Part shown: positions 11,722 through 60,862 of the stretch, piece after piece | Position numbering within the stretch: position 1 is the stretch's first letter | Layout: the number at the start of each line of letters is the position of its first letter | From: an uncultured Phycisphaerales bacterium | GTDB taxonomy: Bacteria; Planctomycetota; B15-G4 | Assembly (NCBI GenBank): GCA_964537035.1 | Contig: CAZIAK010000004.1 | Coordinates: 81,871 to 145,870 of the forward strand | Direction of reading: 5' to 3' | DNA: 64,000 nucleotides | Program-made: the position numbers and the translations under genes | The notes under the pieces: generated by a model | What the model was told of the DNA's origin: nothing | What the model saw: only the letters and a program-made list of their open reading frames with translations | The model's database searches: none

Positions 11722-11796
11722 TGGAGCCGGGGATCGGATTCGAACCGACGACCTCAGCTTTACGAAAGCCGTGCTCTACCACTGAGCTACCCCGGC
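11722..11796 (-). tRNA. tRNA-Thr (anticodon CGU), CCA encoded
   Basis: Minus-strand sequence GCCGGGGUAGCUCAGUGGUAGAGCACGGCUUUCGUAAAGCUGAGGUCGUCGGUUCGAAUCCGAUCCCCGGCUCCA. It folds as a cloverleaf: acceptor GCCGGGG/CCCCGGC, D stem GCUC/GAGC, anticodon loop UUCGUAA, T loop UUCGAAU. Confidence 0.95.
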
Positions 11797-11898: not shown

Positions 11899-12285
11899 GT
11901 GCACTATCTCATCGATGGCTACAACCTGGCCTTCTGGCTCGCGGGGGATGACGACCTCGACCCCCACCAGCTTCGGGAGCTGTTGCTGGGCAAGCTCGCG
12001 ACCAGCCGCCCCCCCGACGCCGAATCGCTGCACATCTACTGGGACGTCCGCAGACCCAACCCGGCGATCCCGGCCAACACCTACCTCGACTGGTGCACGA
12101 TGCACAACGTCCCCGACGCGGACGCAGCCATCATCGACGCCGTCTACGACGCCGAGGCGCCCCGCCGCTGCATGGTGGTCAGCCGAGACCGAGAGGTCAC
12201 CGGCCGCTCCCGCCAGCTAGGAGCCAAGGTCATGTCCCCCAAGGATCTGCTAGGCAAGACCCGAACCCGGCGTCGCCGCCGCTAG
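11899..12285 (+). CDS. NYN/YacP-like predicted RNA-binding nuclease domain protein with Arg-rich tail
   Basis: In frame with track ORF 10999..12285; probable start GTG 11899 (VHYLIDGYNLAFWL..). Contains DADAAIIDAV and MVVSRDREV, typical of YacP/NYN. C-terminal KTRTRRRRR. Confidence 0.6.
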   Translation: MHYLIDGYNLAFWLAGDDDLDPHQLRELLLGKLATSRPPDAESLHIYWDVRRPNPAIPANTYLDWCTMHNVPDADAAIIDAVYDAEAPRRCMVVSRDREVTGRSRQLGAKVMSPKDLLGKTRTRRRRR

Positions 12286-12374
12286 CCGCCAAACCACCCC
12301 AGCGCGTGAGCAAGCGTCACCGCCGAAGAACGACCCCCCGAAAGGCCACAGTCGCCGGCCTCTCCAGCTGACGA

Positions 12375-12477
12375 GGTCGTCGCTGGTTCTCGCCAGGGGG
12401 GGTCTGGAGCGAGTTCACGAGGCGCAGCCGAGTTGTCTGAGCGCCACGGCCCCCCCTGGCGAGAACCAGCGACGACC
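12375..12477. repeat. long-stem hairpin element, copy A (28-bp perfect inverted repeat, 47-nt loop)
   Basis: Arm 12375..12402 (ggtcgtcgctggttctcgccaggggggg) is the exact reverse complement of 12450..12477. The loop starts tctggagcgagt and contains gtctgagcg, the same motifs as copies at 56482 and 57341. It lies between convergent genes ending at 12285 (+) and 12537 (-). Confidence 0.9.
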
Positions 12478-12536
12478 GGAGCACCCCAAAGAAGGCCGCG
12501 ACCTGTAGCGCAGCCCGCAGCCCGCAGCCAGCCCCC

Positions 12537-14594
12537 TTAGCCGTTGGCCATGGCCATGTCGTTGGACGACCCGCGCCCCAGGTTGCCCAGGGCCCGCGCC
12601 GCAGCCAGACCCAGGGGACCGGTGCCGCCCTCCTCGAGAGCAGCATTCACGGCGTCGCTCAGGGCATCGACCGCGCCAGAGGCACCACCGTGAGCAGCCC
12701 AGAGCTGACCCACCGCGTTCAGAGCCGCGATGCGCAGCTCGTCGGAACCACCACCCAGGACGATCTGCTCGACCTGCGAGAGACCGGCTCCCACGTGTCC
12801 TGCCAGGCCCAGGAGAGCGATCTTGACGTCGTCGCCACCCGCCCGCTCGAGCCCCTGCTCAATGCTGTTGGCCGAGCCAGCCGTGGCCGCGCTGGGCAGG
12901 TGCTGCAGCACCTGTGCGGCTGCGATGGCCCGTGAGGCTGCGTCACGAGCGAGCATGTCCGGCTCGCCAGCGACTGCCTGCAGGTCGGCCAAGGCCACCT
13001 CGGAGACCACTGCGGCCACCTGGTCGCCGTAGCGTGCGCTCACCAGATCGGACTCGTCCGTGACGATCACCACAGGCACGTCGGCGCTGCGGGGGTCGTT
13101 CAGCAGGCCGAAGATGACCGTGTCGAGCGTGACGCCGTTGAGGCCGTCGCGTACCACGATCACGTCCTTCGGCGGGAACTGCTTGGCCTTCATCAGGCCT
13201 CCGGCGGCCGTGGAGCTGCCCAGGTGCTGCCAGCCAGCGGCGTTGCCACTGAGCCCCGTGTCACCAATCGAGAACACCAGGCGATCGGGGATCGACTTGA
13301 GCGCCTCACCCAGCACCGAGACCACTCGGGCGTCAGCAAGACCCTGGGAGCCCAGAGAAAGTGCAGCAGCCACAGAAACGGCCTGGAAGTCGCTGTCGAG
13401 GGCGCCTCGCAAGGCTGCGACCTCGCCCTTGCCCGTGCCCATGCTGTCGATCAGAGCCGCAGCAGCAGCCGCCTGATCGTGCGACAACAAGGTGCCCAGA
13501 GCGGCGCCTCGGGCATCGCCAGCCATGGCCAGCTTGATCTCAAGGGACGGCAGCTCATCGGCGGCCGTGGACAGCAGATCGCTGTCCTGCAGGCCCGGGA
13601 CGTCGGCCCCAGCCATGATCTCGGCCTTCATGGACGCGTGCACCGCAGCCAGACCAGCACTGATCTCCTTGCCACCGCCCAGGGCCATGGCCTGGTCGAG
13701 GGTGCCCTCGGCCAGGTGCAGCTGGTACAGGCCGCCCAGAATGGCCTCGCCCATGAGGCCGCCGTCCTGCCAGCTCCAGGCCACCTGGCCATCGGCGTAG
13801 GGCTTGACGATGTCGGCGTCGCCCTGAACCCACTTGGACGCCAGGCGCAGAGCCAGGGTCGAGGGATCGCGGGTGCGCAGGCCCATGGCGTCGAGGTCGT
13901 CGCCCAGGCGGCTCAAGGACTCGGCGGCGATCTGCCGTACCACTGCTTCGTCGTCGCCCGCGGCCAACCAGGCCAGGGAGGCTGCGGCACGGACGTCGCC
14001 GATGGTGCCTAGCACCGAGGCCGCGTTGGCCCGGGTGGTCATGTCCTCAGAGTTCAGCGCTTGCATGAGCGGCGGCACCGCCCGATCACCGAGGCGAATG
14101 AGCGCCTTGATGGCCAGAACACGACGATTCGTGTCGGAGCGGTCAGCCAGGGGACCCAGCAGCGCGGGCACAGCCCACTCGCCGTAGGTCGCATTCAGCT
14201 CGCTCAGGGCCTGCTCAGACTCAAGGGAGCCAGCAGACAGATAGGTGTCGACCAGGTCGCGCGCCCCGCCGGGATCGCTGAGCACGGCGCTGCGGCCCAC
14301 CTTCGCGATGCCCAGGAAGCGCTTGGCCAGGGCACCGACCTCGCCGCCGTCCATGAGCATGGCCAGGATCTGGTCCTGCTCGAGCTTCTGCCAGAAGCGG
14401 AAAGCGTCTTCGTTGCCCGGGTTCTGGGCCAGGGCGTCCTTGAAGGCGTCGATGGCCCCCTGGGTGTCGCCTGACTCATAGGCAGCCACGCCGGTCTCGA
14501 ACAGGCTTTCGGCGTCCTGGGCGGCTGCGGAAGGCAGCGCCAGGAACAGGGCTGCAGACGGAACCACGAAGCGACAAAGCACGGAACGGAGCAT
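12537..14594 (-). CDS. secreted TPR + HEAT-repeat (PBS-lyase-type) protein
   Basis: Track ORF 12537..14804 trimmed to ATG 14594. Signal peptide MLRSVLCRFVVPSAALFLALPSAAAQ. N-terminal TPR-like helices are followed by HEAT_2-like repeats (LGDRAVPPLMQALNSEDMTTRANAASVLGTIGDVRAAASL..). Confidence 0.7.
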   Translation of the reverse strand: MLRSVLCRFVVPSAALFLALPSAAAQDAESLFETGVAAYESGDTQGAIDAFKDALAQNPGNEDAFRFWQKLEQDQILAMLMDGGEVGALAKRFLGIAKVGRSAVLSDPGGARDLVDTYLSAGSLESEQALSELNATYGEWAVPALLGPLADRSDTNRRVLAIKALIRLGDRAVPPLMQALNSEDMTTRANAASVLGTIGDVRAAASLAWLAAGDDEAVVRQIAAESLSRLGDDLDAMGLRTRDPSTLALRLASKWVQGDADIVKPYADGQVAWSWQDGGLMGEAILGGLYQLHLAEGTLDQAMALGGGKEISAGLAAVHASMKAEIMAGADVPGLQDSDLLSTAADELPSLEIKLAMAGDARGAALGTLLSHDQAAAAAALIDSMGTGKGEVAALRGALDSDFQAVSVAAALSLGSQGLADARVVSVLGEALKSIPDRLVFSIGDTGLSGNAAGWQHLGSSTAAGGLMKAKQFPPKDVIVVRDGLNGVTLDTVIFGLLNDPRSADVPVVIVTDESDLVSARYGDQVAAVVSEVALADLQAVAGEPDMLARDAASRAIAAAQVLQHLPSAATAGSANSIEQGLERAGGDDVKIALLGLAGHVGAGLSQVEQIVLGGGSDELRIAALNAVGQLWAAHGGASGAVDALSDAVNAALEEGGTGPLGLAAARALGNLGRGSSNDMAMANG

Positions 14595-14694
14595 GATCGA
14601 GCTCGCTGAAGAGTTGGGTTCGGGGCCCCACGTAACGGCCGGAGTCGTCGGTCCGCAGAGCGAGGCACAAATCTTAGGCAGGGACCCTGATTTA

Positions 14695-16707
14695 TCAAGG
14701 CCGACCGGCGACGTCACGCGATGACCGCCCCGGAAGAGCGAGGAACAGGGCCAGGCCACTGCCCCCCAGGGCGACCCAGGCGGCCGCCGGCGCAGCCCCC
14801 TCAAAGATCAGTTCACCGGGCAGAAGCACGCATCCCAGGACGAAAACGGTGGCTGCGAGCCAGGCGATCACCAGCCGGGGCACGGCCCATGGCGAGGGGC
14901 GATCGGCTCCCCGAAGAGGGCCCCAGAAACCCACAGGCTGCACCAGATCGTAGAAGCGGCGCAGCTGGCCAGGGTCCACCGGGGGCGTCGCCAGGGTCAC
15001 CGGCACGACCACCAGGGTCGAGAAGACGACCACAACCAGCAGGGTCCCGGCAAAGACAGGCTGCCCTCCTGCGACCAGCTGATCCGGGAGCAGACCCGCT
15101 CCCCACTCGGGCCAGCGCTGCAGGGCCCAGGTGACCGCGCCCGAGGTGATCAGGGCCGCGATCTCGGACCAGGCGTTGATCCGCCACCAGAGCCAGCGGG
15201 CCAGATAGACCACGCCCACCCCTGAGAAGAGGGCGGTGAAGACGTCGAACATGCCCCTCACGCTGTCCGAGGCGGCGGCAAAGAAGACGGCCAGCGCCAG
15301 CACCAGGGGACCGGTCACCCGGCCAGCCCGCACGTAGTGCTTTTCGGGCTCGTTGGGGCGTAGAAAGCGCCTGTAGAGGTCGTTCACCAGGTAGGAGGAG
15401 GCCAGGTTCACGTGGGTGTCGATGGTCGACATGAAGGCGGCCAGGAACGACGCGGCGAGCAGCCCTAGCAGGCCGGAGGGCAGAAAGCGGAGCATCATCT
15501 CGGGGTAGGCCGCCTCGTCGTCCGTGCTGGCCAGGACCTGGCCGGCGCGGACCTCATCGCCCGTGGAGACCAGGGGCACGGCGTCCCAACCTTCGACGGC
15601 GGTGGCTGGCAGGGCCACCTCGTGGACCGCTCCCAAGCCGTCGGTGAGCACCATGGTCACCTCGTTGACCGAGGTCACCAGGCCGTCCACCGGGCTGGCC
15701 ACCTGGGCCGGAGGCAGCACCAGCAGGGACGCCAGGGCCACGAGAATCCAGGGCCAGGGGCGCACGGCGTTGTGAGCCACTGCGTACCAGAGCGTGGCCA
15801 GCCAGGCGTGGCGCTCGTTCTTGCTGGCCAGGATGCGCTGGACCATGACGCCGCTGCCGTCCGCGTTCTTGTTGGCGAACCAGATCACCCCCACGAACAC
15901 GGCGAACTGCCAGAAGCTGGCTGTCCAGGTCACCGGGTCGAACAGCTCCACGCCCTCGGTGTTGGGCGCCATGGACAGCTTGTCCGCCGAGAGGGGGTTC
16001 GCTCGCAAGGCCTCGACAAGGCCGGCGGTACCGCCGAAGGCGTTGACCACCATGACCATGAGTGTGATCGAACCCGCCAGGGCCACTCCGAACTGGACGA
16101 AGTCGGTGAGCACCACACCCCAGAGGCCGGCGACCTCGGAGTAGATCAGGGCCAGCAAGGCGCAGCCCAGCATGACCGCCCAGACCGGCGTGATGGCCAC
16201 GGGCCCCAGGCTGAAGAGAGGCTCGCTGCTCAGATCGAAGAGCACGGTGAGCACCTTGGTCATGCCCAGGATCACCCAGCCCATGACGAAGCAGTGCATG
16301 AACACCACCTGGTAGATGCTCTTGAAGCCGCGCAAGAACCGAGCGGGACGGCCGGAGTAACGCAGCTCCATGAACTCGATGTCGGTGAGCACGGCCGAGC
16401 GGCGCCAGAGGCGGGCGAAGAGCACCACCACCAGCAGGGTGCTCATGATGTAGGCCCACCAGCGCCAGTTGCCCGCCACGCCGCCGGTGCGGGTCCAGCT
16501 GGAGATGACCAGGGGCGTATCCGAGGCGAAAGACGTGGCCACCATGGAGGTGCCCGCCAGCCACCAGGGCAGCTGCCGCCCGGAGAGAAAGAAGTTCTCC
16601 ACGGTGCCACGGCTCTTGCGGCCGACCCACACACCGATGCCCAGGGCGAACAACAGGTAGGCGCCGATGACGGCCCAGTCGAGGCCGGTGAACCCTGCGC
16701 GACTCAC
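14695..16707 (-). CDS. sodium:solute symporter (SSS) family transporter with an inserted ~65-aa soluble domain
   Basis: 670 aa. The GTG start at 16707 overlaps the secretin TGA (GTGA). SSS motifs: FFLSGRQLPWWLAGTSMVATSFASDTP, VQRILASKNERHA, AASFLAAFMSTIDTHVNL. Residues ~332-396 (nt 15520..15714) have no counterpart in canonical SSS loops. Confidence 0.85.
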   Translation of the reverse strand: MSRAGFTGLDWAVIGAYLLFALGIGVWVGRKSRGTVENFFLSGRQLPWWLAGTSMVATSFASDTPLVISSWTRTGGVAGNWRWWAYIMSTLLVVVLFARLWRRSAVLTDIEFMELRYSGRPARFLRGFKSIYQVVFMHCFVMGWVILGMTKVLTVLFDLSSEPLFSLGPVAITPVWAVMLGCALLALIYSEVAGLWGVVLTDFVQFGVALAGSITLMVMVVNAFGGTAGLVEALRANPLSADKLSMAPNTEGVELFDPVTWTASFWQFAVFVGVIWFANKNADGSGVMVQRILASKNERHAWLATLWYAVAHNAVRPWPWILVALASLLVLPPAQVASPVDGLVTSVNEVTMVLTDGLGAVHEVALPATAVEGWDAVPLVSTGDEVRAGQVLASTDDEAAYPEMMLRFLPSGLLGLLAASFLAAFMSTIDTHVNLASSYLVNDLYRRFLRPNEPEKHYVRAGRVTGPLVLALAVFFAAASDSVRGMFDVFTALFSGVGVVYLARWLWWRINAWSEIAALITSGAVTWALQRWPEWGAGLLPDQLVAGGQPVFAGTLLVVVVFSTLVVVPVTLATPPVDPGQLRRFYDLVQPVGFWGPLRGADRPSPWAVPRLVIAWLAATVFVLGCVLLPGELIFEGAAPAAAWVALGGSGLALFLALPGRSSRDVAGRP

Positions 16708-18155
16708 CGACGCAGCGGGTCGATCAGTGCCCGGCTGGGCACCTTGATGGTCGGCTCGACAAGGAACAGGATCTCGGTGGTCTGCTCGTCACTCAGCCGG
16801 CTCTTGAAGAACCAGCCCAGCAGGGGGATGTCGCCGAGAAAGGGCACCTTGGTCAGGGTCTCGATGTGCTGCTTCTGGCGCAGACCACCGATGGTGAAGC
16901 TCTGCCCGCTGTACACGTGCAGGGTCGTGTCGGTGGTGCGCTGACTGATGATCGGCGAGGACACGTCCACGCCGTTGATCACGAAGGGTGTTGCACCGGT
17001 CTGGGACGAGACATCGATGGAGAGATCGACCCGGATCAGGTCATCGGCCACGATGAAGGGGATCAGCTCGACGGTCACGCCGGTCTGTTCGAACTCGGTG
17101 GTCACGGTGGGGTTCGTCACCGAGCCCTTGGCCGTGAACACGGGCAGCTTGTCGCCGGTGGTCAGCCTGGCGTGATGGCCGTTGAGCACGGTCACCTTCG
17201 GCGTGCTGAGCAGCTCGGCGGCGCCGATGGTCTGCAGCACGCTGATGATGCCCTTGACCGAGAAGCTGTCGTGCACGCCCTGCAGGCTCAGCAAGAAGCC
17301 GGGCAGGCTGATCGGGCCGTCAGGGAAGCTCGAGAACCCAGCTCCCGAACCGTCCGAAGCTCCATCATCCAAGAAGGGGATGCCCGAGCCGAAACCTCCA
17401 GCGGGTGGGTTCGTGTTCGGGTCATAGGGCAGGTTGCGGTTCTCGAGCTCGGCCACCTTGAGCTTGGCGTCCCAATCGATCTTGTCGCTCAGGTTCACCT
17501 CGACGATGGTGATCTCGATCTCGATCTGGGGCTGATCGCCGAGCACCTTCTGCAACAGCTCGTCGATGAACAGCAAGGTGGGCGGCGGCGCGGTGACGTG
17601 GATCACGTCGGCGATGTCCGGCTTCATCAATCCGTTGCGTGAGCCGAACTTGTCCGAGACCTCATCCTTGTAGAAGTTCGGCTGCAGCGACCAGCGGATG
17701 ATCTCGGTGGCCGGGCGCTCCGGAAAGTTCGGTGTGTTCTGCTCTGCGGGGAAGTCGGCCACGTAGGCCCGCATCAGCGAGACGATGTCGTTGCCCCGGC
17801 CGGCGCGCACCGAGTACATCTTGGTCCACGAGCCATCGAGACCATGAATGACCTGACGGCCCAGGCGGTGGAAGTCCGTGGGCGCCTGGTCGGCCAGGAA
17901 GTCGGGCTCGAGATCGTCGGGCGTGGCCGCGTCGAAGAACGAGAGCTGGTCGCCGCCTTCGTCGTCAGCCTGGGTCTCGGCCACCAGATCGAGGGGGTCG
18001 ATCGTGGGCCGGTCTTGAGACGTGGGGCTCACCGCGATCACGGGCGAATCAGAGGACAGGCTCCAGGACGCGTTGGGGGCCTTGACCTCCTCGGTCACGC
18101 AGCCCGCAGCGGACAGACAGAACGCGGCGGCGAGAAGGCGTCTCATCGTAGTCAT
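16704..18155 (-). CDS. lipoprotein secretin (GspD/PilQ-family C-terminal domain), orphan
   Basis: MTTMRRLLAAAFCLSAAGC lipobox, then an acidic linker. Secretin domain from QIEIEITIVEVNLSD to LTKVPFLGDIPLLGWFFKSRLSDEQTTEILFLVEPTI. Confidence 0.8.
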   Translation of the reverse strand: MTTMRRLLAAAFCLSAAGCVTEEVKAPNASWSLSSDSPVIAVSPTSQDRPTIDPLDLVAETQADDEGGDQLSFFDAATPDDLEPDFLADQAPTDFHRLGRQVIHGLDGSWTKMYSVRAGRGNDIVSLMRAYVADFPAEQNTPNFPERPATEIIRWSLQPNFYKDEVSDKFGSRNGLMKPDIADVIHVTAPPPTLLFIDELLQKVLGDQPQIEIEITIVEVNLSDKIDWDAKLKVAELENRNLPYDPNTNPPAGGFGSGIPFLDDGASDGSGAGFSSFPDGPISLPGFLLSLQGVHDSFSVKGIISVLQTIGAAELLSTPKVTVLNGHHARLTTGDKLPVFTAKGSVTNPTVTTEFEQTGVTVELIPFIVADDLIRVDLSIDVSSQTGATPFVINGVDVSSPIISQRTTDTTLHVYSGQSFTIGGLRQKQHIETLTKVPFLGDIPLLGWFFKSRLSDEQTTEILFLVEPTIKVPSRALIDPLRR

Positions 18156-18221
18156 GACTCGGTCGGCGCCCTGCCCAGAGAAAGAAATGCCCCAGGAAAG
18201 CCCCGGGGACTCGTCAGCCCA

Positions 18222-18932
18222 TCAGGAGGGAAGAGCCGCAATGACCCTATCGGTGACATCGGGGGCCGGCTCCAGGCGAGAAGTCACCCCACCGGTCTGG
18301 ACCACGGCCTGCAAGGCTTCATCGCGCACCACGGCCTTCAGGGCATGCTGATAGACCTTCTCCCACTCTGCTTTCAGAAAGTGGTACTGGGTGTCGTCGG
18401 GATCGAGATTGAGCCAGTCGCGATAGGCCGGAATGGCCTGCAGGACGGCTTCTTTATCCATCTCGGCGACGCCATCACGGGCCTTGGCCTTGCCCGCCCA
18501 GAGCGAGCCGTCGATGTGATAGACGGGCAGCAACTCGATCACCGCCCAGGTCTGATCTTCGATGGCGATCTCACCACCGGAGACTCCGCCCAGGTGGGTG
18601 ATGACGTGGAGGTCTTCGCTGTCGGCCACAGCAGCCAGGGCGCTCTTGACGCCCTTCTTGGCCTGGGAGAACAGCTGCTTGCCCCGACCTTCCGCACGGT
18701 CGAGACCCAGCTCTTGCATGCGCATGAAAGCCGGGTGGTTGCCGTAGACCTCGTTGATGTCGACCTCGGCGCCCCGGGTGGGATTGCTCAAGGGGCCGAA
18801 CACCACCGTGGTCTTGTCGATGGTCAGCTCGCTCTGGCTGACTTCAGTGGCCAGGACAGGGAGCGCCAGAATCACCATCAATGAGAGCGTTGTTGCCCCG
18901 GCCCGCAGGGTTCGACTTGTGGTGATTCGCAT
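18222..18932 (-). CDS. secreted protein with internally duplicated Skp/OmpH-like domain (putative periplasmic chaperone)
   Basis: Track ORF trimmed to ATG 18932 (MRITTSRTLRAGATTLSLMVILALPVLA signal peptide). The two halves align with each other: VDINEVYGNHPAFMRM...VKSALAAVA...IEDQTWAVIELL versus MDKEAVLQAIPAYRDW...YQHALKAVV...DVTDRVIAAL. The C-terminal DVTDxVI pattern resembles OmpH. Confidence 0.45.
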   Translation of the reverse strand: MRITTSRTLRAGATTLSLMVILALPVLATEVSQSELTIDKTTVVFGPLSNPTRGAEVDINEVYGNHPAFMRMQELGLDRAEGRGKQLFSQAKKGVKSALAAVADSEDLHVITHLGGVSGGEIAIEDQTWAVIELLPVYHIDGSLWAGKAKARDGVAEMDKEAVLQAIPAYRDWLNLDPDDTQYHFLKAEWEKVYQHALKAVVRDEALQAVVQTGGVTSRLEPAPDVTDRVIAALPS

Positions 18933-19158
18933 GGTGCACTCCCTCGTTCTCGAGACGCCCAGATCGAGAACCTGTCTATTAGCGCTGAGTATATGCCTTG
19001 GCACGACCTTCGTGCCGTTTCTGATCCGAGCCGAATCGGTCAGAGGGGGATCTCTCCTCCAAGCGCAGGCAGAAACCAGGGGGCCAGCTCTAGGGTCGAC
19101 CCTCTGCCTCTGTTCACTTGAGCAGAAGCAGAGGCGGGGCAGAAGAGCTCGGCGGCCA

Positions 19159-19193
19159 GCCACCCTGTAGCGCGTGCAGCGACACAGGGTGGC
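19159..19193 (-). terminator. putative stem-loop downstream of pnp
   Basis: 10-bp stem gccaccctgt / acagggtggc (19159..19168 and 19184..19193) with a 15-nt loop, 21 nt after the pnp stop. No clear U-tract. Confidence 0.3.
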
Positions 19194-19213
19194 CAGCAGC
19201 CACAGCGGTCAGG

Positions 19214-21691
19214 TCAGGAAGAGCTCTCGCCCTCAGACCCGGCGCCGCTACCCACGGCCTCCGCACCCTCTTCGACAGCCTTCATCGACAGGCGAATGCG
19301 CTTGTTCTCGTCGATATCGAGAACGGTCACCTTGACCACGTCGCCCATGGAGTACGCGGTCTCCGGCTCACGGATGTTCTCGGGCAACATCTCCGAGACG
19401 TGGCAGAGACCATCGGTGCCTCGGGAGACCTCGACGAAGATGCCGTAGGACTTCAGCCCGGTGATCTTGCCCTCGTAGACCTCACCCTTCTTGGGCATGA
19501 CCTTGGGCTCGGACGAGCGGCTGTCGCGCCCACCGCCACCGCGGCTCTCACGACGACCACCTCCGCCGCCACCAGAACCGCCGCCGGTCTCGACCTCGGC
19601 ATCAGAGTCTTCGCCCGCCAGCCGCACCCGACCGAAGTCGTCGATGCTGATGACCTTGACGTTGAGCTCCTGGCCCACTTCGAGCACGTCGTGGACGTCC
19701 TTGACGTGCTCCTTCGAGATGGCGCTGATATGCAGCAGGCCTTCCTTGCCCGGGAAGATCTCGACAAATGCGCCGAACTCCCGCAGCGAGACGACCTTGC
19801 CCTTGTACATGGCACCCAGCTCGGCATCGCCAGTGATGGCTTCGACCGCGGCAGTCGCCGAGTCGATGTCACCCTCGGGACCGGAGGCGATGTTGACCAC
19901 GCCTTCGTCGCTGACCTCGATGCGCACCTTGAAGTCAGCCTGCAGCTGACGGATGACCTTGCCACCAGGGCCGATGAGAGCACCGATCTTCTCGACCGGA
20001 ATGGTGCGAGTCACGATCTGCGGTGCCCACTTGCTCACGCTGTCGCGAGCCGAGGAGATGGCCTCGTTCATCTTGCCGAGGATGTGCAGCCGCCCCGCCT
20101 TGGCCTGGGCCAGGGCTCGACGCAGCAGGTCAGCAGACAGACCCTTGATCTTGATGTCCATCTGCAACGCGTTCACGCCTTCGGCCGTACCGGTGACCTT
20201 GAAGTCCATGTCGCCGTGGTGATCTTCGCTGCCGAGGATGTCACTCAGGATGTAGTGGTCGTCGCCATCTTCGATCAGTCCCATGGCGATGCCCGCAACC
20301 GGCGAGCGGATCGGGCAACCGGCGTCGAGCAGGGCCAGCGAGCCGCCGCAGACCGAGGCCATGGAGGAGCTACCGTTGCTCTCCAGGATCTCACTCACCA
20401 CGCGCACGCTGTATGGGAACGTCTCGGGGTCGGGCATGACCATGTTGACCGAGCGTTCGGCCAGGTTGCCGTGCCCCACTTCGCGACGGGACGTGCCCGT
20501 CATGCGGCGCACTTCGCCGACGCAGAAGGGCGGGAAGTTGTAGTGCAGCATGAAGCGCTTGCTGTACTCGTCCATCAGACCGTCGACGATCTGCTCGTCG
20601 CGACCGGTGCCCAGGGTCACGCTGACCAGGGCCTGGGTCTCACCGCGGGTGAACAGCGTCGAACCGTGGGTCCTGGGCAGGACACCCATCTCGATCTCGA
20701 TCTGGCGAATCTCATCGAGAGCGCGACCGTCTGAGCGACGGCCCTTCTTGATGATCGAGCCACGGGTCAGCTCGGCCTCGAGGTCGTGGAAGGCGTTGCC
20801 CACGTGCTTCTTGGCAGCGGCGAACTCATCGCCTTCGAGACCGTCGAGCAGCTTCTCGCGAGCCTCGTTGGAGACCGCCTTCATGGCCGCCTTCTTCTCG
20901 AACTTGCCGTCGACCGCCATGGCGGCCTCGAACGCATCGTGATAGGCGTTGACCTGATCGGTGAACGGGTTGGCGACCTCTTCCTTCACCTCTTGCTTGG
21001 GCTTGCCGACCTTGTCGACCAGCTCCTGGATCATGTCGCAGAGCTGCTGGATGTAGCCGTGGCCAAACATGATCGCGTCGGCCATGACCTCTTCGGGCAG
21101 CTCAAGGGCGCCCGCTTCGACCATGGTCACGGCGGTCTTGGTGCCGCTGACCATGAGGTCGAGGGTGCTCGCGGCCAGCTGCTCAACCGTGGGGTTGATC
21201 ACGAACTCGCCGTCGATGTAGGCCACCCGCACCGTGGCGCCAGGGCCCTGGTAGGGGATGGTCGAGATGCTCAGGGCGGCCATGGAGGCCACACCGGCGA
21301 GCACACCGGGCTCACTCTCGCGGTCGTAGCTCACGACCTGGTTGATGATCTGCACCTCGTTGCGATACGTGGGCGAGAACATGGGGCGCACGGGGCGGTC
21401 GATCGAGCGGGCAATCAAGATTTCAGGATCGCGGGGCCGCATCTCACGCTTGAAGAAACCGCCCGGCACCTTGCCGGCTGCGTAGGTCTTCTCGCGGTAT
21501 TCGATCGTCAGGGGGAAGAAGTCGAGGTCAGGGCGACCCTTCGAACTCTGCACGGTGGACAGCACTGCGGTCTCGCCATAGGTGGCGAAGATGGCGCCGT
21601 CTGCTTGCTTGGCCATGCGGCCGGTTTCGAGGGTCAGGGTGCGGCCGCCGATTTCGCAGCTCACACTGGTGGGGTTGTTCAGTTTCGTCAT
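19214..21691 (-). CDS. pnp: polyribonucleotide nucleotidyltransferase (PNPase) with C-terminal Gly/Arg linker and a second S1 domain
   Basis: Track ORF trimmed to ATG 21691 (MTKLNNPTSVSCEIGGRTLTLETGRMAKQADGA). Two RNase PH domains, a KH domain (IPVEKIGALIGPGGKVIRQL) and an S1 domain (YKGKVVSLREFGAFVEIFPGKEGLLHIS). These are followed by GGGSGGGGGGRRESRGGGGRDSR and a second S1-like domain (VYEGKITGLKSYGIFVEVSRGTDGLCHVS). Confidence 0.9.
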   Translation of the reverse strand: MTKLNNPTSVSCEIGGRTLTLETGRMAKQADGAIFATYGETAVLSTVQSSKGRPDLDFFPLTIEYREKTYAAGKVPGGFFKREMRPRDPEILIARSIDRPVRPMFSPTYRNEVQIINQVVSYDRESEPGVLAGVASMAALSISTIPYQGPGATVRVAYIDGEFVINPTVEQLAASTLDLMVSGTKTAVTMVEAGALELPEEVMADAIMFGHGYIQQLCDMIQELVDKVGKPKQEVKEEVANPFTDQVNAYHDAFEAAMAVDGKFEKKAAMKAVSNEAREKLLDGLEGDEFAAAKKHVGNAFHDLEAELTRGSIIKKGRRSDGRALDEIRQIEIEMGVLPRTHGSTLFTRGETQALVSVTLGTGRDEQIVDGLMDEYSKRFMLHYNFPPFCVGEVRRMTGTSRREVGHGNLAERSVNMVMPDPETFPYSVRVVSEILESNGSSSMASVCGGSLALLDAGCPIRSPVAGIAMGLIEDGDDHYILSDILGSEDHHGDMDFKVTGTAEGVNALQMDIKIKGLSADLLRRALAQAKAGRLHILGKMNEAISSARDSVSKWAPQIVTRTIPVEKIGALIGPGGKVIRQLQADFKVRIEVSDEGVVNIASGPEGDIDSATAAVEAITGDAELGAMYKGKVVSLREFGAFVEIFPGKEGLLHISAISKEHVKDVHDVLEVGQELNVKVISIDDFGRVRLAGEDSDAEVETGGGSGGGGGGRRESRGGGGRDSRSSEPKVMPKKGEVYEGKITGLKSYGIFVEVSRGTDGLCHVSEMLPENIREPETAYSMGDVVKVTVLDIDENKRIRLSMKAVEEGAEAVGSGAGSEGESSS

Positions 21692-21850
21692 TGTCTTTGT
21701 CTTTGTTTCCGGATCGACGCAGAGATGGAGTCCCGATTGGACCCCGAGCGCCGATTGCTTGAACTGGGTGCGCAAATTGCGCACGGACCCCAAGCCTGTG
21801 CTTGAAGCCCGTTGGTGCTCAGCGGGGGGCGAGACGCCCCCGTGCAGGGG
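21692..21850 (-). promoter_or_regulatory. rpsO-pnp intergenic leader with two GC hairpins
   Basis: Hairpin 21825..21841 (7-bp GC stem, 3-nt loop) lies 9 nt after the rpsO stop. A perfect palindrome gtgcgca-aat-tgcgcac sits at 21768..21784. The position matches the rpsO terminator and pnp leader arrangement known from E. coli. Confidence 0.4.
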
Positions 21851-22135
21851 TCAGACGTTTGTCCGGATCCCGCGGATGCCGAGCTTCTCGATCAGCTGCT
21901 TGTAGCCTGCGTCATCGTTCTTGCGCAGGTAGGTGAGCAGCCGGTTGCGCCGGCCAACGAGCGTGACGAGCCCGCGCTGGGTGTGCTTGTCCTTCTTGTG
22001 CTGCTTGAGGTGCTCGGTCAGACCGCGAATACGCTTGGTCAACACCGCGACTTGAACCTCGGTGGAGCCACAGTCCCGCTCGTGGACCTGGAACTCCTGA
22101 ATGATTGCGGCCTTATCGGCCATCTTGATGCTCAT
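21851..22135 (-). CDS. rpsO: 30S ribosomal protein S15
   Basis: GSTEVQVAVLTKRIRGLTEHLKQHKKDKHTQRGLVTLVGRRNRLLTYL. ATG at 22135 gives the same spacing to GSTEVQ as E. coli S15. Confidence 0.95.
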   Translation of the reverse strand: MSIKMADKAAIIQEFQVHERDCGSTEVQVAVLTKRIRGLTEHLKQHKKDKHTQRGLVTLVGRRNRLLTYLRKNDDAGYKQLIEKLGIRGIRTNV

Positions 22136-22320
22136 GTATCAACTCTTGTCTTGATCGGGTGGCGGGTTCTCATGCTCGCCAGCGAAGGCCGGCTGCCGCC
22201 ACGGATGTCTTCTTCGGATCACACAGATAATTTGGGTGAGATCCTAGCAGACCCCTGAGAGGCCCCGCAAGGCGGCTGAACCCCGAACGACGGGGCCCGG
22301 CGCTGATCGCCCTGGCCCGC

Positions 22321-22980
22321 TCAGCCGTCCGCTGAAGCCGCGAAGGCCTCTTCGGCACGAGCCCGCCTGCGACACGACTCGCATTGCTCACAGGGCCGCT
22401 CACCACCGTCGTAGCATGACCAGGTCACGTCCAGAGGGGCGCCTACGGCCATTCCAGCCGCATAGAGTTCGACCTTGGACATCTCCAGGGTTGGCGACTC
22501 CACCCGCACCGAGCCCCGTGTCGAATAGGCGAGGGAATCATTCAAAGCGCTCAGATAGTCACTACTATTATCCGGGAAAGTCTCTGCTTCTTCCTTGTTG
22601 AAGCCCACCACCACGACATCCAGGGAGCGAGCCTCGGCCACGGCTGCGGCCAGGTTCAGCAAGACGCCGTTGCGATTGGGGATCCACACCGCATCGGCGG
22701 TGGCCATGGCCTTCGGGCCATCGAGGTCGCCCAGGTCTGGATGGGGAAGGTCCTGCTTCCCGTCCACGAGCGCATTGCCTGCCAGGGCTCCCAGAAGCGG
22801 CACGGCGGTACAGAGCACCTCCACCCCAAGGGCCTTGCCCACGGCCAGGGCAGCCCGCTCCTCTTGCTGGACCGCTCGTTGCCCGTAATCAATGAACAGG
22901 CCCCAGCTGAGCTGGCCACCAGCGGCCTGGTAGAGGCTGGCGGCGACCGTGGAGTCCAGGCCGCCAGAGATCAGAATCAA
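22321..22980 (-). CDS. queC: 7-cyano-7-deazaguanine synthase-like PP-loop ATPase
   Basis: TTG start at 22980. PP-loop ILISGGLDSTV, WIPNRNGVLL, and a C-terminal Zn-Cys cluster WSCYDGGERPCEQCESCRRR. Confidence 0.8.
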   Translation of the reverse strand: MILISGGLDSTVAASLYQAAGGQLSWGLFIDYGQRAVQQEERAALAVGKALGVEVLCTAVPLLGALAGNALVDGKQDLPHPDLGDLDGPKAMATADAVWIPNRNGVLLNLAAAVAEARSLDVVVVGFNKEEAETFPDNSSDYLSALNDSLAYSTRGSVRVESPTLEMSKVELYAAGMAVGAPLDVTWSCYDGGERPCEQCESCRRRARAEEAFAASADG

Positions 22981-23289
22981 CGCTGAGATGGACTCTCCTC
23001 CTTGGCATGTTCAAGGGCACAGCCTGGCGGGTGCGAAGCCAGGCGCCTGTGGTGGCAGGCGCCACAGGGCGGGTCGGGGCCCCCTGGCGAAGCTCGTTTG
23101 AAATCGCAAAAGACCCAGGTTAGCCGTCCGGCTGGGGTCAGCTCAACGTTGTGGCAATGCCCCCGAGCGACCTGGCAATTGAGTACCCCGTTGTTGCTCA
23201 AATCGCGGGCCGCCGCTAAAACGGGCGCCCGCTCCCGGTCCGATCAGCACCGCTGTTGCAGCGTCCCGCCCCACCCCTGGAGGCCCGCC

Positions 23290-24876
23290 GTGCGAGCCAT
23301 TGTCCTGTCGATCTGCTGCCTGGCTGTCTATGCGGCCCCGGTTTCATCCCAAGCCTTGGAAGGCATGCAGCCCCAGGCTGAGACCCATTGGCAGGCCCTG
23401 TCCAAGGGGCTGAGCCGCCTGGATCAGAGCCTGATTCAGCAGCTCGACGGCGCTCTCTGGGCCGATGTGCGCGACTCGGTGGCCCTGGGTCTCGAGAGTA
23501 TTGATCAGGCCCACAAGCTGGGTGCGCCCCTCGATGTCTGCCAGGCGGCCCGGGTCACCTTGCGCGCCGTCGGCGCCCGCCAGGACCTGCTCGAGCGGGA
23601 GGCCTTTGCCGAGGACACGTCCTACGGGCAGGCCCCCGATGACGAAGAGTCGCGCCTGGCCTGGCTCGACGACGAGTACAACGCTGTCTACGACGGCTAC
23701 GGCGCCCTGGCAGACGATCTGCTCTACCAGGAGGGTCGCCTGCCCCAGACCACCATGCTCCTGGTCGAGCTGCTCTTCGCCGTCGAACGAGACAACGAGG
23801 CGGCGGATGCCTTGAGCCAGGGCCTGGCCCTGTGGCCACGCGAGGCCACCCTGCACGAGCAGGCCAAGGCCTGGGCCGACATCCTGCCCGCGCCGGAGAA
23901 CCTGGCCGCTCAGCTGCAAGAGCGGGTCGACCTGCTCGACATCGCCGACGCCGACTTCTCAGGCCTGGCCCTCGAGACCATCGCCCTGCTGCAGACCGCC
24001 ATGGGCCGCAAGGCCTACGATCTGCGTGACTTCAGCCTCTCTGGCCTGGCCTTTCACCGGGCAGCCATCTCCCTGCAGCGCAGCCACTCCATGCCCCGCC
24101 AGTGGGGCGCCGACGAGATCGCCTTCCGCCGCGCCGACAACCTGGTCAGCGCCGCCTACAGCTTCTTGGGAGTCGCCCTCAACCTGTGGAGCGAAGACCG
24201 CAACGCCCCCAACGCCCAGCTCGCCGTCGAAGCCTGCGAGGAGCAGATCACCAAGGCACTGGTGGCCGTGCCAGGCCACCCTGCGGCGACCCAGGCTGTG
24301 CTCTGGCTGGGAGATCACCTGATGAACAAGGGCGACCCGTCGATGTCGTCCCTGGCCGATCAGGCCCAGGCCCGAGACCTCTACGGCCGCATGGCCGAGC
24401 GCTTCGACAACTCAGACTGGTGGAACAACTACGCCTTCTGGTGCCGGGAGACGGGCACGGCCAACGAAGCCCTGGGCAACACCGAAGAAGCTCACTCGCT
24501 CTACGAGAGAAGCTACGCCGCCTACGTCAAGACCATCGAGCTGGCGCCGGAGAACTCCCGCTACGTCAACGACACGGGGCTCATGCTCTTCTACCACCTG
24601 GGCCGCGACCTCGATGAGGCCGAGTCGCTCTTTCAGCGCAGCTGGAAACTGGGCGCCGAGGTCTGCGACAACCCCTTCGTGGATGAAGCGGTCTTCGAGC
24701 AGAACTTCAGCGCCTACACGGACGCGATCCTGAACCTGGCCCGGCTGTACCTGCAACGGGGCGACCTCGACCAGGCTCAGACCACCATGAACACGCTGAT
24801 CGAGCTGGCCCCTGAGCGCATGGACGCCCAGATGACCCGGCGCGAGATCGACATGGCTCGGAGCGCGCGAGGGTGA
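23290..24876 (+). CDS. secreted TPR-repeat protein (paralog of the next gene)
   Basis: Track ORF 23002..24876 trimmed to GTG 23290, preceded by GGAGG with a 6-nt spacer. Signal peptide VRAIVLSICCLAVYAAPVSSQA. The C-terminal block WWNNYAFWCRETG...YVNDTGLMLFYHLGRDLDEAESLF is shared with 24902..26233. Confidence 0.65.
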   Translation: MRAIVLSICCLAVYAAPVSSQALEGMQPQAETHWQALSKGLSRLDQSLIQQLDGALWADVRDSVALGLESIDQAHKLGAPLDVCQAARVTLRAVGARQDLLEREAFAEDTSYGQAPDDEESRLAWLDDEYNAVYDGYGALADDLLYQEGRLPQTTMLLVELLFAVERDNEAADALSQGLALWPREATLHEQAKAWADILPAPENLAAQLQERVDLLDIADADFSGLALETIALLQTAMGRKAYDLRDFSLSGLAFHRAAISLQRSHSMPRQWGADEIAFRRADNLVSAAYSFLGVALNLWSEDRNAPNAQLAVEACEEQITKALVAVPGHPAATQAVLWLGDHLMNKGDPSMSSLADQAQARDLYGRMAERFDNSDWWNNYAFWCRETGTANEALGNTEEAHSLYERSYAAYVKTIELAPENSRYVNDTGLMLFYHLGRDLDEAESLFQRSWKLGAEVCDNPFVDEAVFEQNFSAYTDAILNLARLYLQRGDLDQAQTTMNTLIELAPERMDAQMTRREIDMARSARG

Positions 24877-24901
24877 CCCAGATCGGGGCTGGGGACGTCC
24901 G

Positions 24902-26233
24902 ATGATCCCAGCCCAGCTGCTGGCCTCGCTGCTGGCCCTGGCCTTGCCTTCGTCGCTGGCCCTGCCCACGTTGTACCCGGCGGACGACGGGCCCGTGGTG
25001 GGTCTCGCCGCTGGCCCGATCGACGAAGCCGCTCAGCTCGCTGCTGAGCTGCTGACCACGCCGGCAAAGAGACAGCGCCCCGTGCGCCTGGCCCTGGCCC
25101 AGGTGCTGCTCGACACGGGGTCTGCCCAGGAAGCTCTCGACACCCTGGCGCCCTTGCCGCTCGCTGAAGATGGCGAGGCCACCAAGCTCACCGGCCTGAT
25201 CTTCGCGGCCCTCGGCGACGAGATCGAGTTCGGCGGCGGTGCTGTCGAAGACGCCGACTACTTCTACGGCGAGGCCCTGCAGTACCTGGAGAACGCAGCT
25301 GCCCTGGCTCAGGGCAAGGACACGGACGCCGCCGTCGAAGCGGCCTACCTCGCTCTCTACATCTTCGCCGACTGGTCCAAGGCCGAGGTCCTGGCAGACG
25401 ACGCCTTGGCCCGGGCCCCCGACGACGGCGAGGCCCTGCTCGCTCGGGGCTGCGCCAGGGTGCGGGGCTTCGCCGACATGGAGCGGCACATGACCCCGTC
25501 CCTGCGCAGAGACAACTGGGACGTGGCCGTGGCCGATCTGAAACGAGCAGTGACCCTGCTGGGCGCCGACCGCAGCGAGCCCTGGTGGCAGCTGATCTGG
25601 ATGTACGAGCAAGAGAACCTGCCCGACGAGGCCCTGGCCGCGGCCCTGGCCCATCACGACGCCACGGGCCGGGCCGACAGCTCGACGCTCTTGCGCCTGG
25701 CGCTCTCTTTTGCTCGTGCGCAACAGCTAGACCCAGCCCTCGCCGCCCTGCAAGCCCTCGTCGAGCGGGACCCGGACGGCCTGCTGGCCAACCTGCGCGC
25801 CAGCGAAGACCCCACCGCCGACGTGGTGGCGTTGAGCTGGGCCATGGGCCCACTGCTCGCCAAACGCCGCCAATCAGAAGCCCGAGACCTGCTGCACGTC
25901 CTGGGGCAGGCCGAGCCCGCCGACGCCGACTTCTGGAACAACCTGGCCTTTCTGTGCCGCGAGACCAGGCAATACGAAGACTCGTATGCCGCCTACGAGA
26001 GGGCCGTGGCCATCGACGACAGCTCGCCGCGGCTGCTGAACGACACGGCGCTCATCCTGCAATACCACCTGCATCGCCATCTCGATCGTGCCCGCGCGTT
26101 GTACGCACAGGCCATCGCCCAGGCAGACGCAGGCCTCGATGAAAAGCCCGATGCAGCCGCCGCCCGAGAGCTGCGCTCGGCCCGCACCGACGCCCGCAAC
26201 AACCTCTCACGCCTGGGCTCGAAGGGTCGCTAG
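24902..26233 (+). CDS. secreted TPR-repeat protein (paralog of the previous gene)
   Basis: ATG 24902. Signal peptide MIPAQLLASLLALALPSSLA. Contains the block FWNNLAFLCRETR...LLNDTALILQYHLHRHLDRARALY. Confidence 0.65.
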   Translation: MIPAQLLASLLALALPSSLALPTLYPADDGPVVGLAAGPIDEAAQLAAELLTTPAKRQRPVRLALAQVLLDTGSAQEALDTLAPLPLAEDGEATKLTGLIFAALGDEIEFGGGAVEDADYFYGEALQYLENAAALAQGKDTDAAVEAAYLALYIFADWSKAEVLADDALARAPDDGEALLARGCARVRGFADMERHMTPSLRRDNWDVAVADLKRAVTLLGADRSEPWWQLIWMYEQENLPDEALAAALAHHDATGRADSSTLLRLALSFARAQQLDPALAALQALVERDPDGLLANLRASEDPTADVVALSWAMGPLLAKRRQSEARDLLHVLGQAEPADADFWNNLAFLCRETRQYEDSYAAYERAVAIDDSSPRLLNDTALILQYHLHRHLDRARALYAQAIAQADAGLDEKPDAAAARELRSARTDARNNLSRLGSKGR

Positions 26234-42231: not shown

Positions 42232-42729
42232 TCAGAACTCCGCTTCGAGTGCGCGCACCACATCTCGGGCCAAGAGCCTGAAGACGTCAAGTCGGGCACT
42301 GTCTACGTTTTCGGAAAGATTGGGCACAAAGTCGCCGGCCTGGGTGAGGTTCACGGTCTTGTAGACCTCTCCGCTGAAGGCGTCTCGGAGCTGGATTTCG
42401 ATGGCTATGGACGTGCTGCGAAAGGTCGGCGTGCGGTCGGGGTCCTCGGATAGCACGGCCTGCCTCACATGGACGATGCGTCCTTCGATCAGGACCTCGG
42501 CCTCTTCTTTGCTCGTCAGGTGGAGCCCAGGCCTGGACAAGATCTCGGCGACCACCCGCTCGGTCAGCTTGAACTCGACGTCCCGGTAGAAGGTGTCGTT
42601 AGCAAAGAAACCAACGAACACCGAGTCTCGATCCAGGGGATAGAGCCCTCCCCGAGACAGGCTCACGCAGCCCTGGGGGGCCAGGGCCGAGAGCAGCACC
42701 GCGGTGAGCAGAAGCCACTGAGCTCTCAT
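42232..42729 (-). CDS. LptE-like LPS-assembly lipoprotein
   Basis: Track ORF 42232..43200 trimmed to ATG 42729, which overlaps the upstream TGA (ATGA). MRAQWLLLTAVLLSALAPQGC lipobox. FVGFFANDTFYRDVEFKLTERVVAEIL...EVLIEGRI matches the LptE pattern. Confidence 0.5.
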   Translation of the reverse strand: MRAQWLLLTAVLLSALAPQGCVSLSRGGLYPLDRDSVFVGFFANDTFYRDVEFKLTERVVAEILSRPGLHLTSKEEAEVLIEGRIVHVRQAVLSEDPDRTPTFRSTSIAIEIQLRDAFSGEVYKTVNLTQAGDFVPNLSENVDSARLDVFRLLARDVVRALEAEF

Positions 42730-43700
42730 CGGTCTTCGCTCCAGGGGCTCTTCTCCGGGAACTCCCGGTCGATGGAGGTCAGCCCCGGGTCGGCCGCCAT
42801 GAGGTCGGGGTCGAGCCCGGCTGCCCGCAACAGCTCGAGGGCCGCCTGTCCGGAGTCGGTCTCGGGATAGAGCACCGCGGCGTTGGCCAGGCGCAGCTGC
42901 CGGCCCACCTGCCGATCGCGGCTGGCGTAGAAGTCGGCCGCCATCAGGTGCGTGGCGGCCAGCAGCTCCCGGCAGGTCGCCAGGTCGGCCTCCGCGTCTT
43001 TGCGAGCCACTCCCCGGCGATGCACTCGCAGCGAGGTTCGCAGCAGCTCCTGGGTCTTCAGCAGACCGTTGTGGTCGTAACCCGGCCCGTAGACCAGCTT
43101 GAGCCTGCAGTTCGCGGCCAGCCAGAGCGACCGTTCGGCCCATTCGCTCTCTGGGTACTCGTCGAAGAGCTGCTCGTAGGTCAGCGAGGCTTCGAGCCAT
43201 TCTTCATTCTCTTCGCTGGCGAAGAACTCGGCGATGTGGTGCAGGGCGTCATCCGCCAGATCACTGTGCCGAAAGTGAACCTGCAGCAGGGTCATGACCT
43301 CGACGCCACGCCCCCGAGAGTCGAAGAAGCCCCCGTAACGTTCATCGTACAAGAGGCGCTCGCCGATCTCGAAGAGGCGCCGTTCGATGGTCACCACATG
43401 GGGCGACCAGGGCGCGGTCTCCAGCAGGGTGCGGTAGTTCTTGAAGGCCTTGACGTCGAGCCCCAGGGTCATCTCGGCCTCTGCCGCCAGCCACGCAGCC
43501 TCTGCCAGGGCCTCCGCAGACCAGGTCTCCTCGAGCTCACCGCTCAACACGGCCTCGGAGAGCGCAGCAGCCTCTTCGAACGAACCCTCATCGAAGTAGA
43601 TGCGGGCACTCTGAACTGCATCTGCGTCAGGAATGAGGGCCGGGGTGCCACAGCCGGTGCAGGCTGCCCAGAGGACCGAGGCAAGCAGAAGCGTGCGCAT
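42726..43700 (-). CDS. TPR-like outer-membrane lipoprotein (BamD/YfiO-like?)
   Basis: Trimmed to ATG 43700 (MRTLLLASVLWAACTGC). Helical repeat content. Positioned next to the lptE-like gene. Confidence 0.4.
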   Translation of the reverse strand: MRTLLLASVLWAACTGCGTPALIPDADAVQSARIYFDEGSFEEAAALSEAVLSGELEETWSAEALAEAAWLAAEAEMTLGLDVKAFKNYRTLLETAPWSPHVVTIERRLFEIGERLLYDERYGGFFDSRGRGVEVMTLLQVHFRHSDLADDALHHIAEFFASEENEEWLEASLTYEQLFDEYPESEWAERSLWLAANCRLKLVYGPGYDHNGLLKTQELLRTSLRVHRRGVARKDAEADLATCRELLAATHLMAADFYASRDRQVGRQLRLANAAVLYPETDSGQAALELLRAAGLDPDLMAADPGLTSIDREFPEKSPWSEDR

Positions 43701-43704
43701 GGGC

Positions 43705-60456: not shown

Positions 60457-60862
60457 GGGATCCCGAGTCGCCCGTAAGCCGGGTTCTGTGACCAGCCCCC
60501 GAAGGGGCCGGCGATGACCATGTCTCTGGGGCCGCCGTTGCCGACGGCCTCGAACGCTCTACCCGGAGGTTCTAGCGACGCGGGCAGCGTCATCCCTCCC
60601 TATATGAACTTTCTCCCGGTGAGGTTTACCTAGCCGAGGTGATCAACCACCCCGCTGGTGCGCTCTTACCGCACCCTTTCAGCCTTACCCCGGCGCCGCT
60701 TGCGCGACCCCGTGGCGGTCTACTCTCTGTTGCACTTGCTCTGGCCTTGCGGCCGGTGGGCGTTACCCACCACCGTGCCCTGTGGAGCCCGGACTTTCCT
60801 CCACCCGGCCCTGCCCCGAGGGGCAGGGATGAGCAGCGGCCACCCTGGCGGCTCGAGATCCC
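60457..60862 (-). ncRNA. rnpB: RNase P RNA, bacterial type A
   Basis: The minus strand contains GGAGGAAAGUCCGGGCUCCACAGGGCA (CR-I), GGUAAGGCUGAAAGGGUGCGGUAAGAGCGCACC, GGUAAACCUCACC and ACAGAACCCGGCUUAC (CR-V). The 5' GGGAUCUCGAGCCGCC pairs with the 3' GGGCGACUCGGGAUCCC to form P1. Ends are approximate to within a few nt. Confidence 0.92.

Follow-up and report, generated by a model that had tools for sequence, protein, structure and literature searches.

We analysed a 64,000-nucleotide stretch of contig CAZIAK010000004.1 (positions 81,871 to 145,870 of the forward strand) from an uncultured Phycisphaerales bacterium of the Planctomycetota, hereafter the window, and focused on four adjacent genes that include a secretin. 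Secretins are almost always studied within complete clusters for type II secretion systems (T2SS), type IV pili (T4P) or type III secretion systems (T3SS). Here the secretin is preceded by a small OmpH-like protein, which we call SkpL, and followed by a sodium/solute symporter (SSS) and by a secreted protein of TPR and HEAT repeats, referred to below as the HEAT protein. The locus defines a compact and sharply bounded secretin family whose members are predicted from sequence to be lipidated and carry a single N-domain; the family secretin is preceded by the small OmpH-like protein and usually followed by the sugar-type importer and the periplasmic HEAT solenoid. The cluster is real and conserved. 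Physical coupling between its products is not supported, and obligate co-occurrence of the genes is refuted.

All four open reading frames (ORFs) lie on the minus strand, where an earlier note on this DNA had placed them, and for both SkpL and the HEAT protein the ATG start agrees with that of homologues. The GTGA overlap reported between the secretin and SSS genes is present in the window sequence. The features of the locus are as follows.

18222..18932, minus strand: SkpL, a tandem mini-OmpH-like secreted protein of 236 amino acids (ORF and start codon)
18190..18208, minus strand: terminator-like hairpin, GC-rich and followed by a T-rich tail, in the 66-nucleotide spacer between SkpL and the secretin (consensus scan)
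16704..18155, minus strand: short lipoprotein secretin of 483 amino acids (ORF, PF00263, lipobox)
16704..16707, minus strand: GTGA overlap of the secretin stop codon (TGA) and the SSS start codon (GTG) (sequence)
14695..16707, minus strand: SGLT-like Na+/solute symporter (SSS) of 670 amino acids with a GTG start (ORF, PF00474)
12537..14594, minus strand: secreted TPR/HEAT alpha-solenoid of 685 amino acids (ORF, HEAT_2, AlphaFold)

Four proteins encoded at the secretin locus

The 483-residue product had been described as a lipoprotein with an LSAAGC lipobox and a secretin domain at its C terminus, and both parts of this description hold. Residues 307–470 match PF00263 with 130.8 bits (cut-off 27.5; Pfam), placing the protein in the secretin superfamily, and the cysteine of the lipobox L-S-A-A-G-C, Cys19, is shared by all 27 family members compared. 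With this conserved cysteine after the signal peptide, the secretin is, as far as its sequence can tell, of the liposecretin type. Secretin_N (PF03958), a domain for which the earlier note had proposed a search, was not detected by Pfam in the 483-residue protein, and neither was PF21305. The NCBIfam models for GspD, MshL and PilQ score far under their cut-offs (TIGR02517, 132 against 351; TIGR02519, 110 against 250; TIGR02515, 98 against 284), as does the model for SctC.

The AlphaFold model of the secretin monomer has a low overall pLDDT (the predicted local confidence score) of 60, and was used for counting N-domains only. It contains a single N-domain (residues 110–204; block pLDDT ~75–88) with a beta-alpha-beta-beta-alpha order of secondary structure, in which the loop of residues 160–180 is unstructured and confidence dips to ~52–54. 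Between the lipobox and this domain lies an acidic stretch of ~80 residues that is poorly conserved, of low confidence and mostly devoid of regular secondary structure. The barrel forms the last part of the protein. The N0 domain and the several Secretin_N ring domains of GspD and PilQ are thus missing by both Pfam and AlphaFold, and there is no S-domain.

The closest relatives among solved structures are secretins of T2SS. Vibrio EpsD (6i1y) and V. cholerae GspD (5wq8) give the best sequence match (E 5e-32), which covers the last part of the N-domain and the secretin domain, and GspD proteins are also top Foldseek matches of the model, together with BfpB–BfpG (9u5s); matches with E < 1e-9 are to secretins only. 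Unlike GspD, the window secretin has neither N0, N1 and N2 (Secretin_N) nor an S-domain, is a lipoprotein, has no gsp genes near it and falls well short of the GspD model TIGR02517. It has an N-terminal lipobox in common with the liposecretins HxcQ, BfpB (with BfpG) and TcpC (with TcpQ), and BfpG and TcpQ are, like SkpL, small periplasmic proteins encoded beside the secretin. HxcQ, BfpB and TcpC, however, sit inside complete T2SS or type IVb pilus clusters. Their partners are not known to be OmpH-like, and we found no description in the literature of an OmpH-like protein as a type of secretin partner.

The family comprises ~49 clusters of proteins of ~480 residues that are 47–93% identical, and its edge is sharp, the next matches having E 1e-26. 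Its named members come nearly all from metagenome-assembled genomes of Planctomycetota; one is labelled Pseudohongiellaceae.

SkpL consists of two ~85-residue repeats of a short OmpH/Skp-like unit. The earlier reading of two Skp/OmpH-like halves stands as regards the halves, both of which align with single-repeat secreted proteins of 115–157 residues. The likeness to OmpH itself is less direct: SkpL scores 17.4 bits against PF03938 (Pfam), under the cut-off of 32.4, whereas in the alignment set of the repeat unit and its single-repeat relatives 9 of 14 sequences hit the OmpH model in its C-terminal part, with a best E of 6.6e-8. A profile of SkpL orthologues run against PDB sequences gave neither Skp nor any other informative match. 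The unit also differs from Skp in its tandem duplication and in its length, which is too short for the long 'tentacle' helices. The SkpL family is small, with 21 representatives among 1.84 billion proteins.

The SSS matches PF00474 with 101.1 bits (cut-off 22.8; Pfam) in two stretches on either side of an insertion, and so belongs to the SSS family; it scores 117.8 on TIGR00813, below the cut-off of 184. Among solved structures it is nearest to Na+/sugar transporters, with vSGLT (2xq2) the closest at E 5.6e-38, which suggests a substrate of sugar type. What sets it apart from vSGLT, SGLT1/2 and SiaT is the insertion, ~70 residues long (~332–405) after predicted transmembrane helix 8 (TM8). Residues 334–398 give weak Pfam matches to RnfC_N, biotin-lipoyl and EIIA domains and weakly resemble a barrel-sandwich (lipoyl-like) domain. 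From the count of transmembrane helices and the positive-inside rule, the insertion would face the periplasm.

The earlier note had counted a periplasm-facing insertion in the importer among its reasons for an envelope-spanning route. The insertion is there, but it is not peculiar to this locus: in other Planctomycetota and in Acidobacteriota, SSS genes that stand alone carry it too. It marks a large, uncharacterised SSS subfamily of ~650 residues from these two phyla and is missing from a shorter relative of 585 residues (P0219). Outgroup SSS proteins, 44–49% identical to that of the window, are encoded by such stand-alone genes, and no secretin was found near them. A secretin-specific docking adaptation was therefore rejected as an explanation of the insertion.

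The fourth product had been called a TPR/HEAT protein with a signal peptide, which is what we find: 57.2 bits to HEAT_2 (PF13646; cut-off 27.7), one marginal TPR at the N terminus (Pfam), and a type I signal peptide (AAAQ/DA), read from the sequence, with no lipobox. AlphaFold predicts an alpha-solenoid with a beta-hairpin (pLDDT 84.7; predicted template-modelling score, pTM, 0.75), and Pfam match and fold together mark it as a HEAT repeat protein. A Foldseek search against the PDB gave no functional lead, returning generic HEAT/ARM solenoids (importin, alphaRep, catenin) with TM-scores of at most 0.23. A role as a TPR lipoprotein pilotin of the PilF/PilW/Tgl/TadD kind was considered too and discarded, as the protein lacks a lipobox; nor does it match TIGR02521. 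The edge of the HEAT family is abrupt, E rising from ~1e-139 to 1e-37, and its members are distributed in the same way as those of the secretin family.

Two further observations concern the HEAT protein. The modelled solenoid has an alpha/beta domain set into it (residues ~438–545), and the sequence of residues 446–535 gives weak matches to receiver domains (E 0.08–0.25); a response-regulator receiver fold would be oddly placed inside a periplasmic HEAT solenoid. In other Planctomycetota, full-length homologues with 27–31% identity lie directly 3' of AnmK, the anhydro-MurNAc kinase (L087, 10001–12082; L088, 10001–12112; related loci are denoted by L and a number), with no secretin near them. 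The AnmK–HEAT context is conserved together with a LysM protein, which may point to a connection with peptidoglycan turnover.

Conservation and separability of the gene order

We compared 15 loci from uncultured Planctomycetota, the window included, whose secretins are 47–93% identical. The complete order SkpL–secretin–SSS–HEAT is found in 11 of them, and secretin and SSS are adjacent in 12. SkpL lies 5' of the secretin wherever the upstream flank is present (14 of 14 loci). Three of the 15 (L002/L003, L007 and L008) have SkpL, secretin and HEAT with no SSS between the last two. The remaining departure is L093 (1–3881), whose contig begins inside the secretin, cutting off the upstream flank; its secretin and SSS are 10 bp apart and are followed, in place of HEAT, by an unrelated 376-residue secreted protein that is not assigned to a family, and its downstream region is rearranged. 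The earlier note had proposed to look for conservation of the neighbourhood in related genomes; such conservation is partial, covering the four genes in 11 loci and the secretin–SSS pair in 12. The GTGA overlap is not conserved. Of the 12 loci with an SSS, three (the window, L001 and L089) have a called overlap of 4 bp, and one seems likely in L005, judged from tblastn coordinates only; L090, L091, L092 and L093 have none, and apparently neither do L004, L006 and L009. In the other loci with an SSS, the gap between the two genes ranges from 7 to ~400 bp.

The junction between SkpL and the secretin varies as well. In the window its spacer holds the terminator-like hairpin at 18190–18208, which possibly attenuates read-through. 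The consensus scan that found it returned 8 terminator sites against 4.0 expected, which is weak evidence for the hairpin, and promoters and terminators in the window occur at about the frequency expected from shuffled sequence. The spacer is not kept: SkpL and secretin overlap by 4 bp instead in L001, L002 and L091.

A neighbour-joining tree of the secretins (200 bootstrap replicates) places the loci without SSS in two clades, B and D, with 95% and 94% support, and one of these is nested among members that carry the SSS. The loci without SSS were jointly monophyletic in 0 of 200 replicates. The nested clade (94%) therefore records at least one well-supported loss of the SSS in which the other three genes were kept, and secretin and SSS do not co-occur obligately.

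Where a lineage rearranges its genome slowly, the conservation of gene neighbours says little about function. The flanks of the cluster are equally syntenic, with queC–rpsO–pnp upstream and YacP, Usp, GidB, a small TPR protein and POR downstream. As these housekeeping flanks are just as collinear, the adjacency is largely inherited in this lineage. One alternative reading is that a functional link exists between SkpL and the secretin alone, the SSS and HEAT genes being unrelated neighbours that slow genome rearrangement has kept beside them. That the collinear block includes clearly unrelated genes throughout the family speaks for such a reading, as do the breakpoints found on both sides of the SSS and the unrelated contexts in which outgroup SSS and HEAT homologues occur. 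It sits less well with four genes on the same strand that are separated by short gaps and recurrently overlap, with the envelope location of all four products, and with a HEAT family that stops abruptly at the phylogenetic depth where the secretin family also ends. We consider this reading rather unlikely, though the most probable of the three alternatives to the one we favour.

The opposite position was that of the earlier note, in which the four genes form one envelope-spanning import route: the secretin is the entry channel, SkpL and HEAT bridge the periplasm and the SSS insertion receives the substrate. Its remark that its author knew of no described system of such composition agrees with our searches, which found nothing relevant in the literature on a pairing of secretin and SSS or on an 'orphan secretin'. 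An outer-membrane channel and an inner-membrane importer in one operon do recall polysaccharide-utilisation loci, but these use a TonB-dependent barrel of the SusC type rather than a secretin, and the present locus has no TonB-dependent gene. Import through secretins is established for DNA uptake. The mechanism of macromolecule uptake in Planctomycetota is moreover open (PMC5394234, PMC12673574). The conserved order in 11 loci argues for a common route, as do the three called overlaps and the position of the SSS orthologues, all 12 of those examined (at least 56% identical) lying directly after the secretin. The juxtaposition is also derived, the outgroup relatives lying in separate places, and could reflect selection.

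Several observations stand against an import route. The SSS has gone from the locus in two clades that keep the other three genes, HEAT is missing in L093, the overlap of secretin and SSS varies between loci, SSS proteins with no secretin nearby have the insertion too, the housekeeping synteny of the flanks is equally conserved, and a GspK-like gene follows the positionally equivalent secretin of a sister lineage (see below). SSS proteins, furthermore, carry small solutes, which ordinarily pass the outer membrane through porins, and the proposal has no precedent in the literature that we found. We therefore judge it very unlikely. The same low standing applies to its most specific form, in which the short liposecretin of marine Planctomycetota would act as a nutrient gate and the mini-Skp and HEAT proteins would help to bring an (oligo)saccharide through outer membrane and periplasm to the SGLT-like symporter. 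Were it true that the secretin feeds the importer, this would bear directly on the uptake of large substrates in Planctomycetota; such a nutrient gate would be the first secretin-based route of nutrient uptake and would offer the unexplained uptake of macromolecules by the phylum a candidate at the molecular level. A search with Rfam for a riboswitch or leader that might hint at a substrate found none, either at the gathering threshold over the whole window or at E <= 1 over positions 12000–22500.

Candidate partners of the secretin

A more distant Planctomycetota lineage, represented by L010 and L011 (pnp 51% identical), indicates what the locus may derive from. In the same slot, after rpsO–pnp, these loci have a single-repeat OmpH-like protein, a secretin that is 26% identical to that of the window, and a GspK-like minor pseudopilin. 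The GspK-like gene (L011, 11214–12812; L010, 6308–6928) matches NF037980 with E 2.5e-10 and 40 bits, below the cut-off of 130, and no other T2SS genes were found near it. On this sequence comparison, the deepest conserved unit is the OmpH-like protein with the secretin. Since a GspK-like pseudopilin follows the secretin of the sister lineage, the ancestry of the locus points to an ordinary pseudopilus-type machine. A GspK-like gene was searched for in the family loci, and none was found.

The search for other parts of such a machine agreed with the earlier observation that no T2SS, T4P or T3SS ATPase, platform, pilotin or pilin gene adjoins the secretin: Pfam and NCBIfam scans of 30 further ORFs of the 64-kb window returned no ATPase, platform, pilotin or pilin of these systems. 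The usual cluster, with the secretin beside an ATPase, a platform protein and a pilin or pseudopilin, is thus found neither in the window nor within ±10 kb in the seven family loci annotated with Pfam. One protein of the window does bear a prepilin-type N terminus, the only motif of this kind here, as the earlier note had also reported:

63039–64000, plus strand: protein with a prepilin-type cleavage/methylation N terminus (TIGR02532, 26.7 bits against a cut-off of 16.3)

This large protein has transmembrane segments towards its C terminus and runs past the end of the window. On L094, one of two short metagenome fragments recovered with orthologues, the tail of the protein is Cys-rich and resembles a zinc ribbon; no T2SS genes were found on either fragment. 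With a prepilin-type protein in the window, the genome very likely encodes a prepilin peptidase.

The sparse surroundings of the secretin could also mean that it needs no machine. On that reading it would be a gated pore of the outer membrane that works autonomously, without a pseudopilus motor, used for instance in polymer export or macromolecule entry, with SkpL and HEAT as its sole dedicated partners. A secretin with one N-domain, no N0 and no S-domain would suit this role; motor genes are missing near the secretin in every locus annotated by gene calling; and HEAT shares the distribution of the secretin family. Yet to our knowledge all known secretins, slime nozzles included, belong to machines of the T2SS, T4P or T3SS type. 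The recent link between secretins and slime secretion (PMC12475490) lends the idea some further weight. The GspK-like pseudopilin after the sister-lineage secretin and the prepilin-type protein in the window weigh on the other side, as do distant HEAT homologues that are not linked to a secretin. On balance we find an autonomous pore unlikely.

The explanation we favour, with a probability of roughly 0.45, is a lineage-specific operon in which a short, probably self-piloted secretin and its partner SkpL would serve a distant T2SS/T4P-like machine, with HEAT as an accessory and the SSS co-transcribed but mechanically independent. As in HxcQ and other liposecretins, the lipid anchor of the secretin itself probably brings it to the outer membrane. 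HxcQ is reported to be self-piloting (cited in PMC12475490, ref. 19). SkpL probably acts as the dedicated periplasmic chaperone or stabiliser of the secretin, because the SkpL–secretin pair is deeply conserved and its start and stop codons frequently overlap. The outer-membrane gate is probably linked to a pseudopilus-type machine whose inner-membrane parts would be encoded elsewhere in the genome. The TPR/HEAT solenoid may be a periplasmic scaffold or accessory protein. The SSS would be a Na+-coupled importer of sugar type, coupled to the rest at most by regulation, for example if enzymes were secreted and their products imported.

This favoured reading draws on the SkpL–secretin pair, present in all 14 flanked family loci and, in its single-repeat form, in L010/L011, and on its 4-bp overlaps; on the GspK-like gene of L010/L011, the nearness of the secretin to GspD and the prepilin-type protein of the window; on the separability of the SSS, which two clades lack and which stand-alone outgroup genes encode with the same insertion, and its likeness to Na+/sugar transporters; and on the HEAT homologues beside AnmK with no secretin near. 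Other points count against it. The assignment of SkpL to OmpH is transitive and weak. The secretin has neither N0 nor Secretin_N domains, the parts that make contact with GspC or PilP in classical systems. Neither the 64-kb window nor the ±10 kb around the secretin in seven Pfam-annotated family loci holds a T2SS/T4P ATPase, platform or pilin. Finally, the position of all 12 examined SSS orthologues directly after the secretin is compatible with selection for linkage.

Should SkpL turn out to be a chaperone specific to the secretin, the repertoire of pilotins and accessory proteins would gain a new class. The main present value of the locus lies in providing a well-delimited and testable gene family, whose gene content, domain identities, conservation pattern and separable parts are established by the comparisons above.

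Other features of the window

The 30 further ORFs scanned across the window show housekeeping and envelope genes, among them pnp, rpsO, queC, FtsH, a BamD-like gene, peptidases and sugar-nucleotide enzymes. The BamD/YfiO-like gene is consistent, by its sequence, with a classical diderm pathway of outer-membrane assembly. The remaining annotated features are listed here.

11725–11796, minus strand: tRNA gene
23002–26233, plus strand: two large TPR proteins adjoining queC
42726–43727, minus strand: BamD/YfiO-like lipoprotein (TIGR03302, 42.6 bits, below the cut-off)
60460–60855, minus strand: class A bacterial RNase P RNA (252 bits)

The two TPR proteins, which are divergent in the window, belong to the same syntenic block in most of the related loci.

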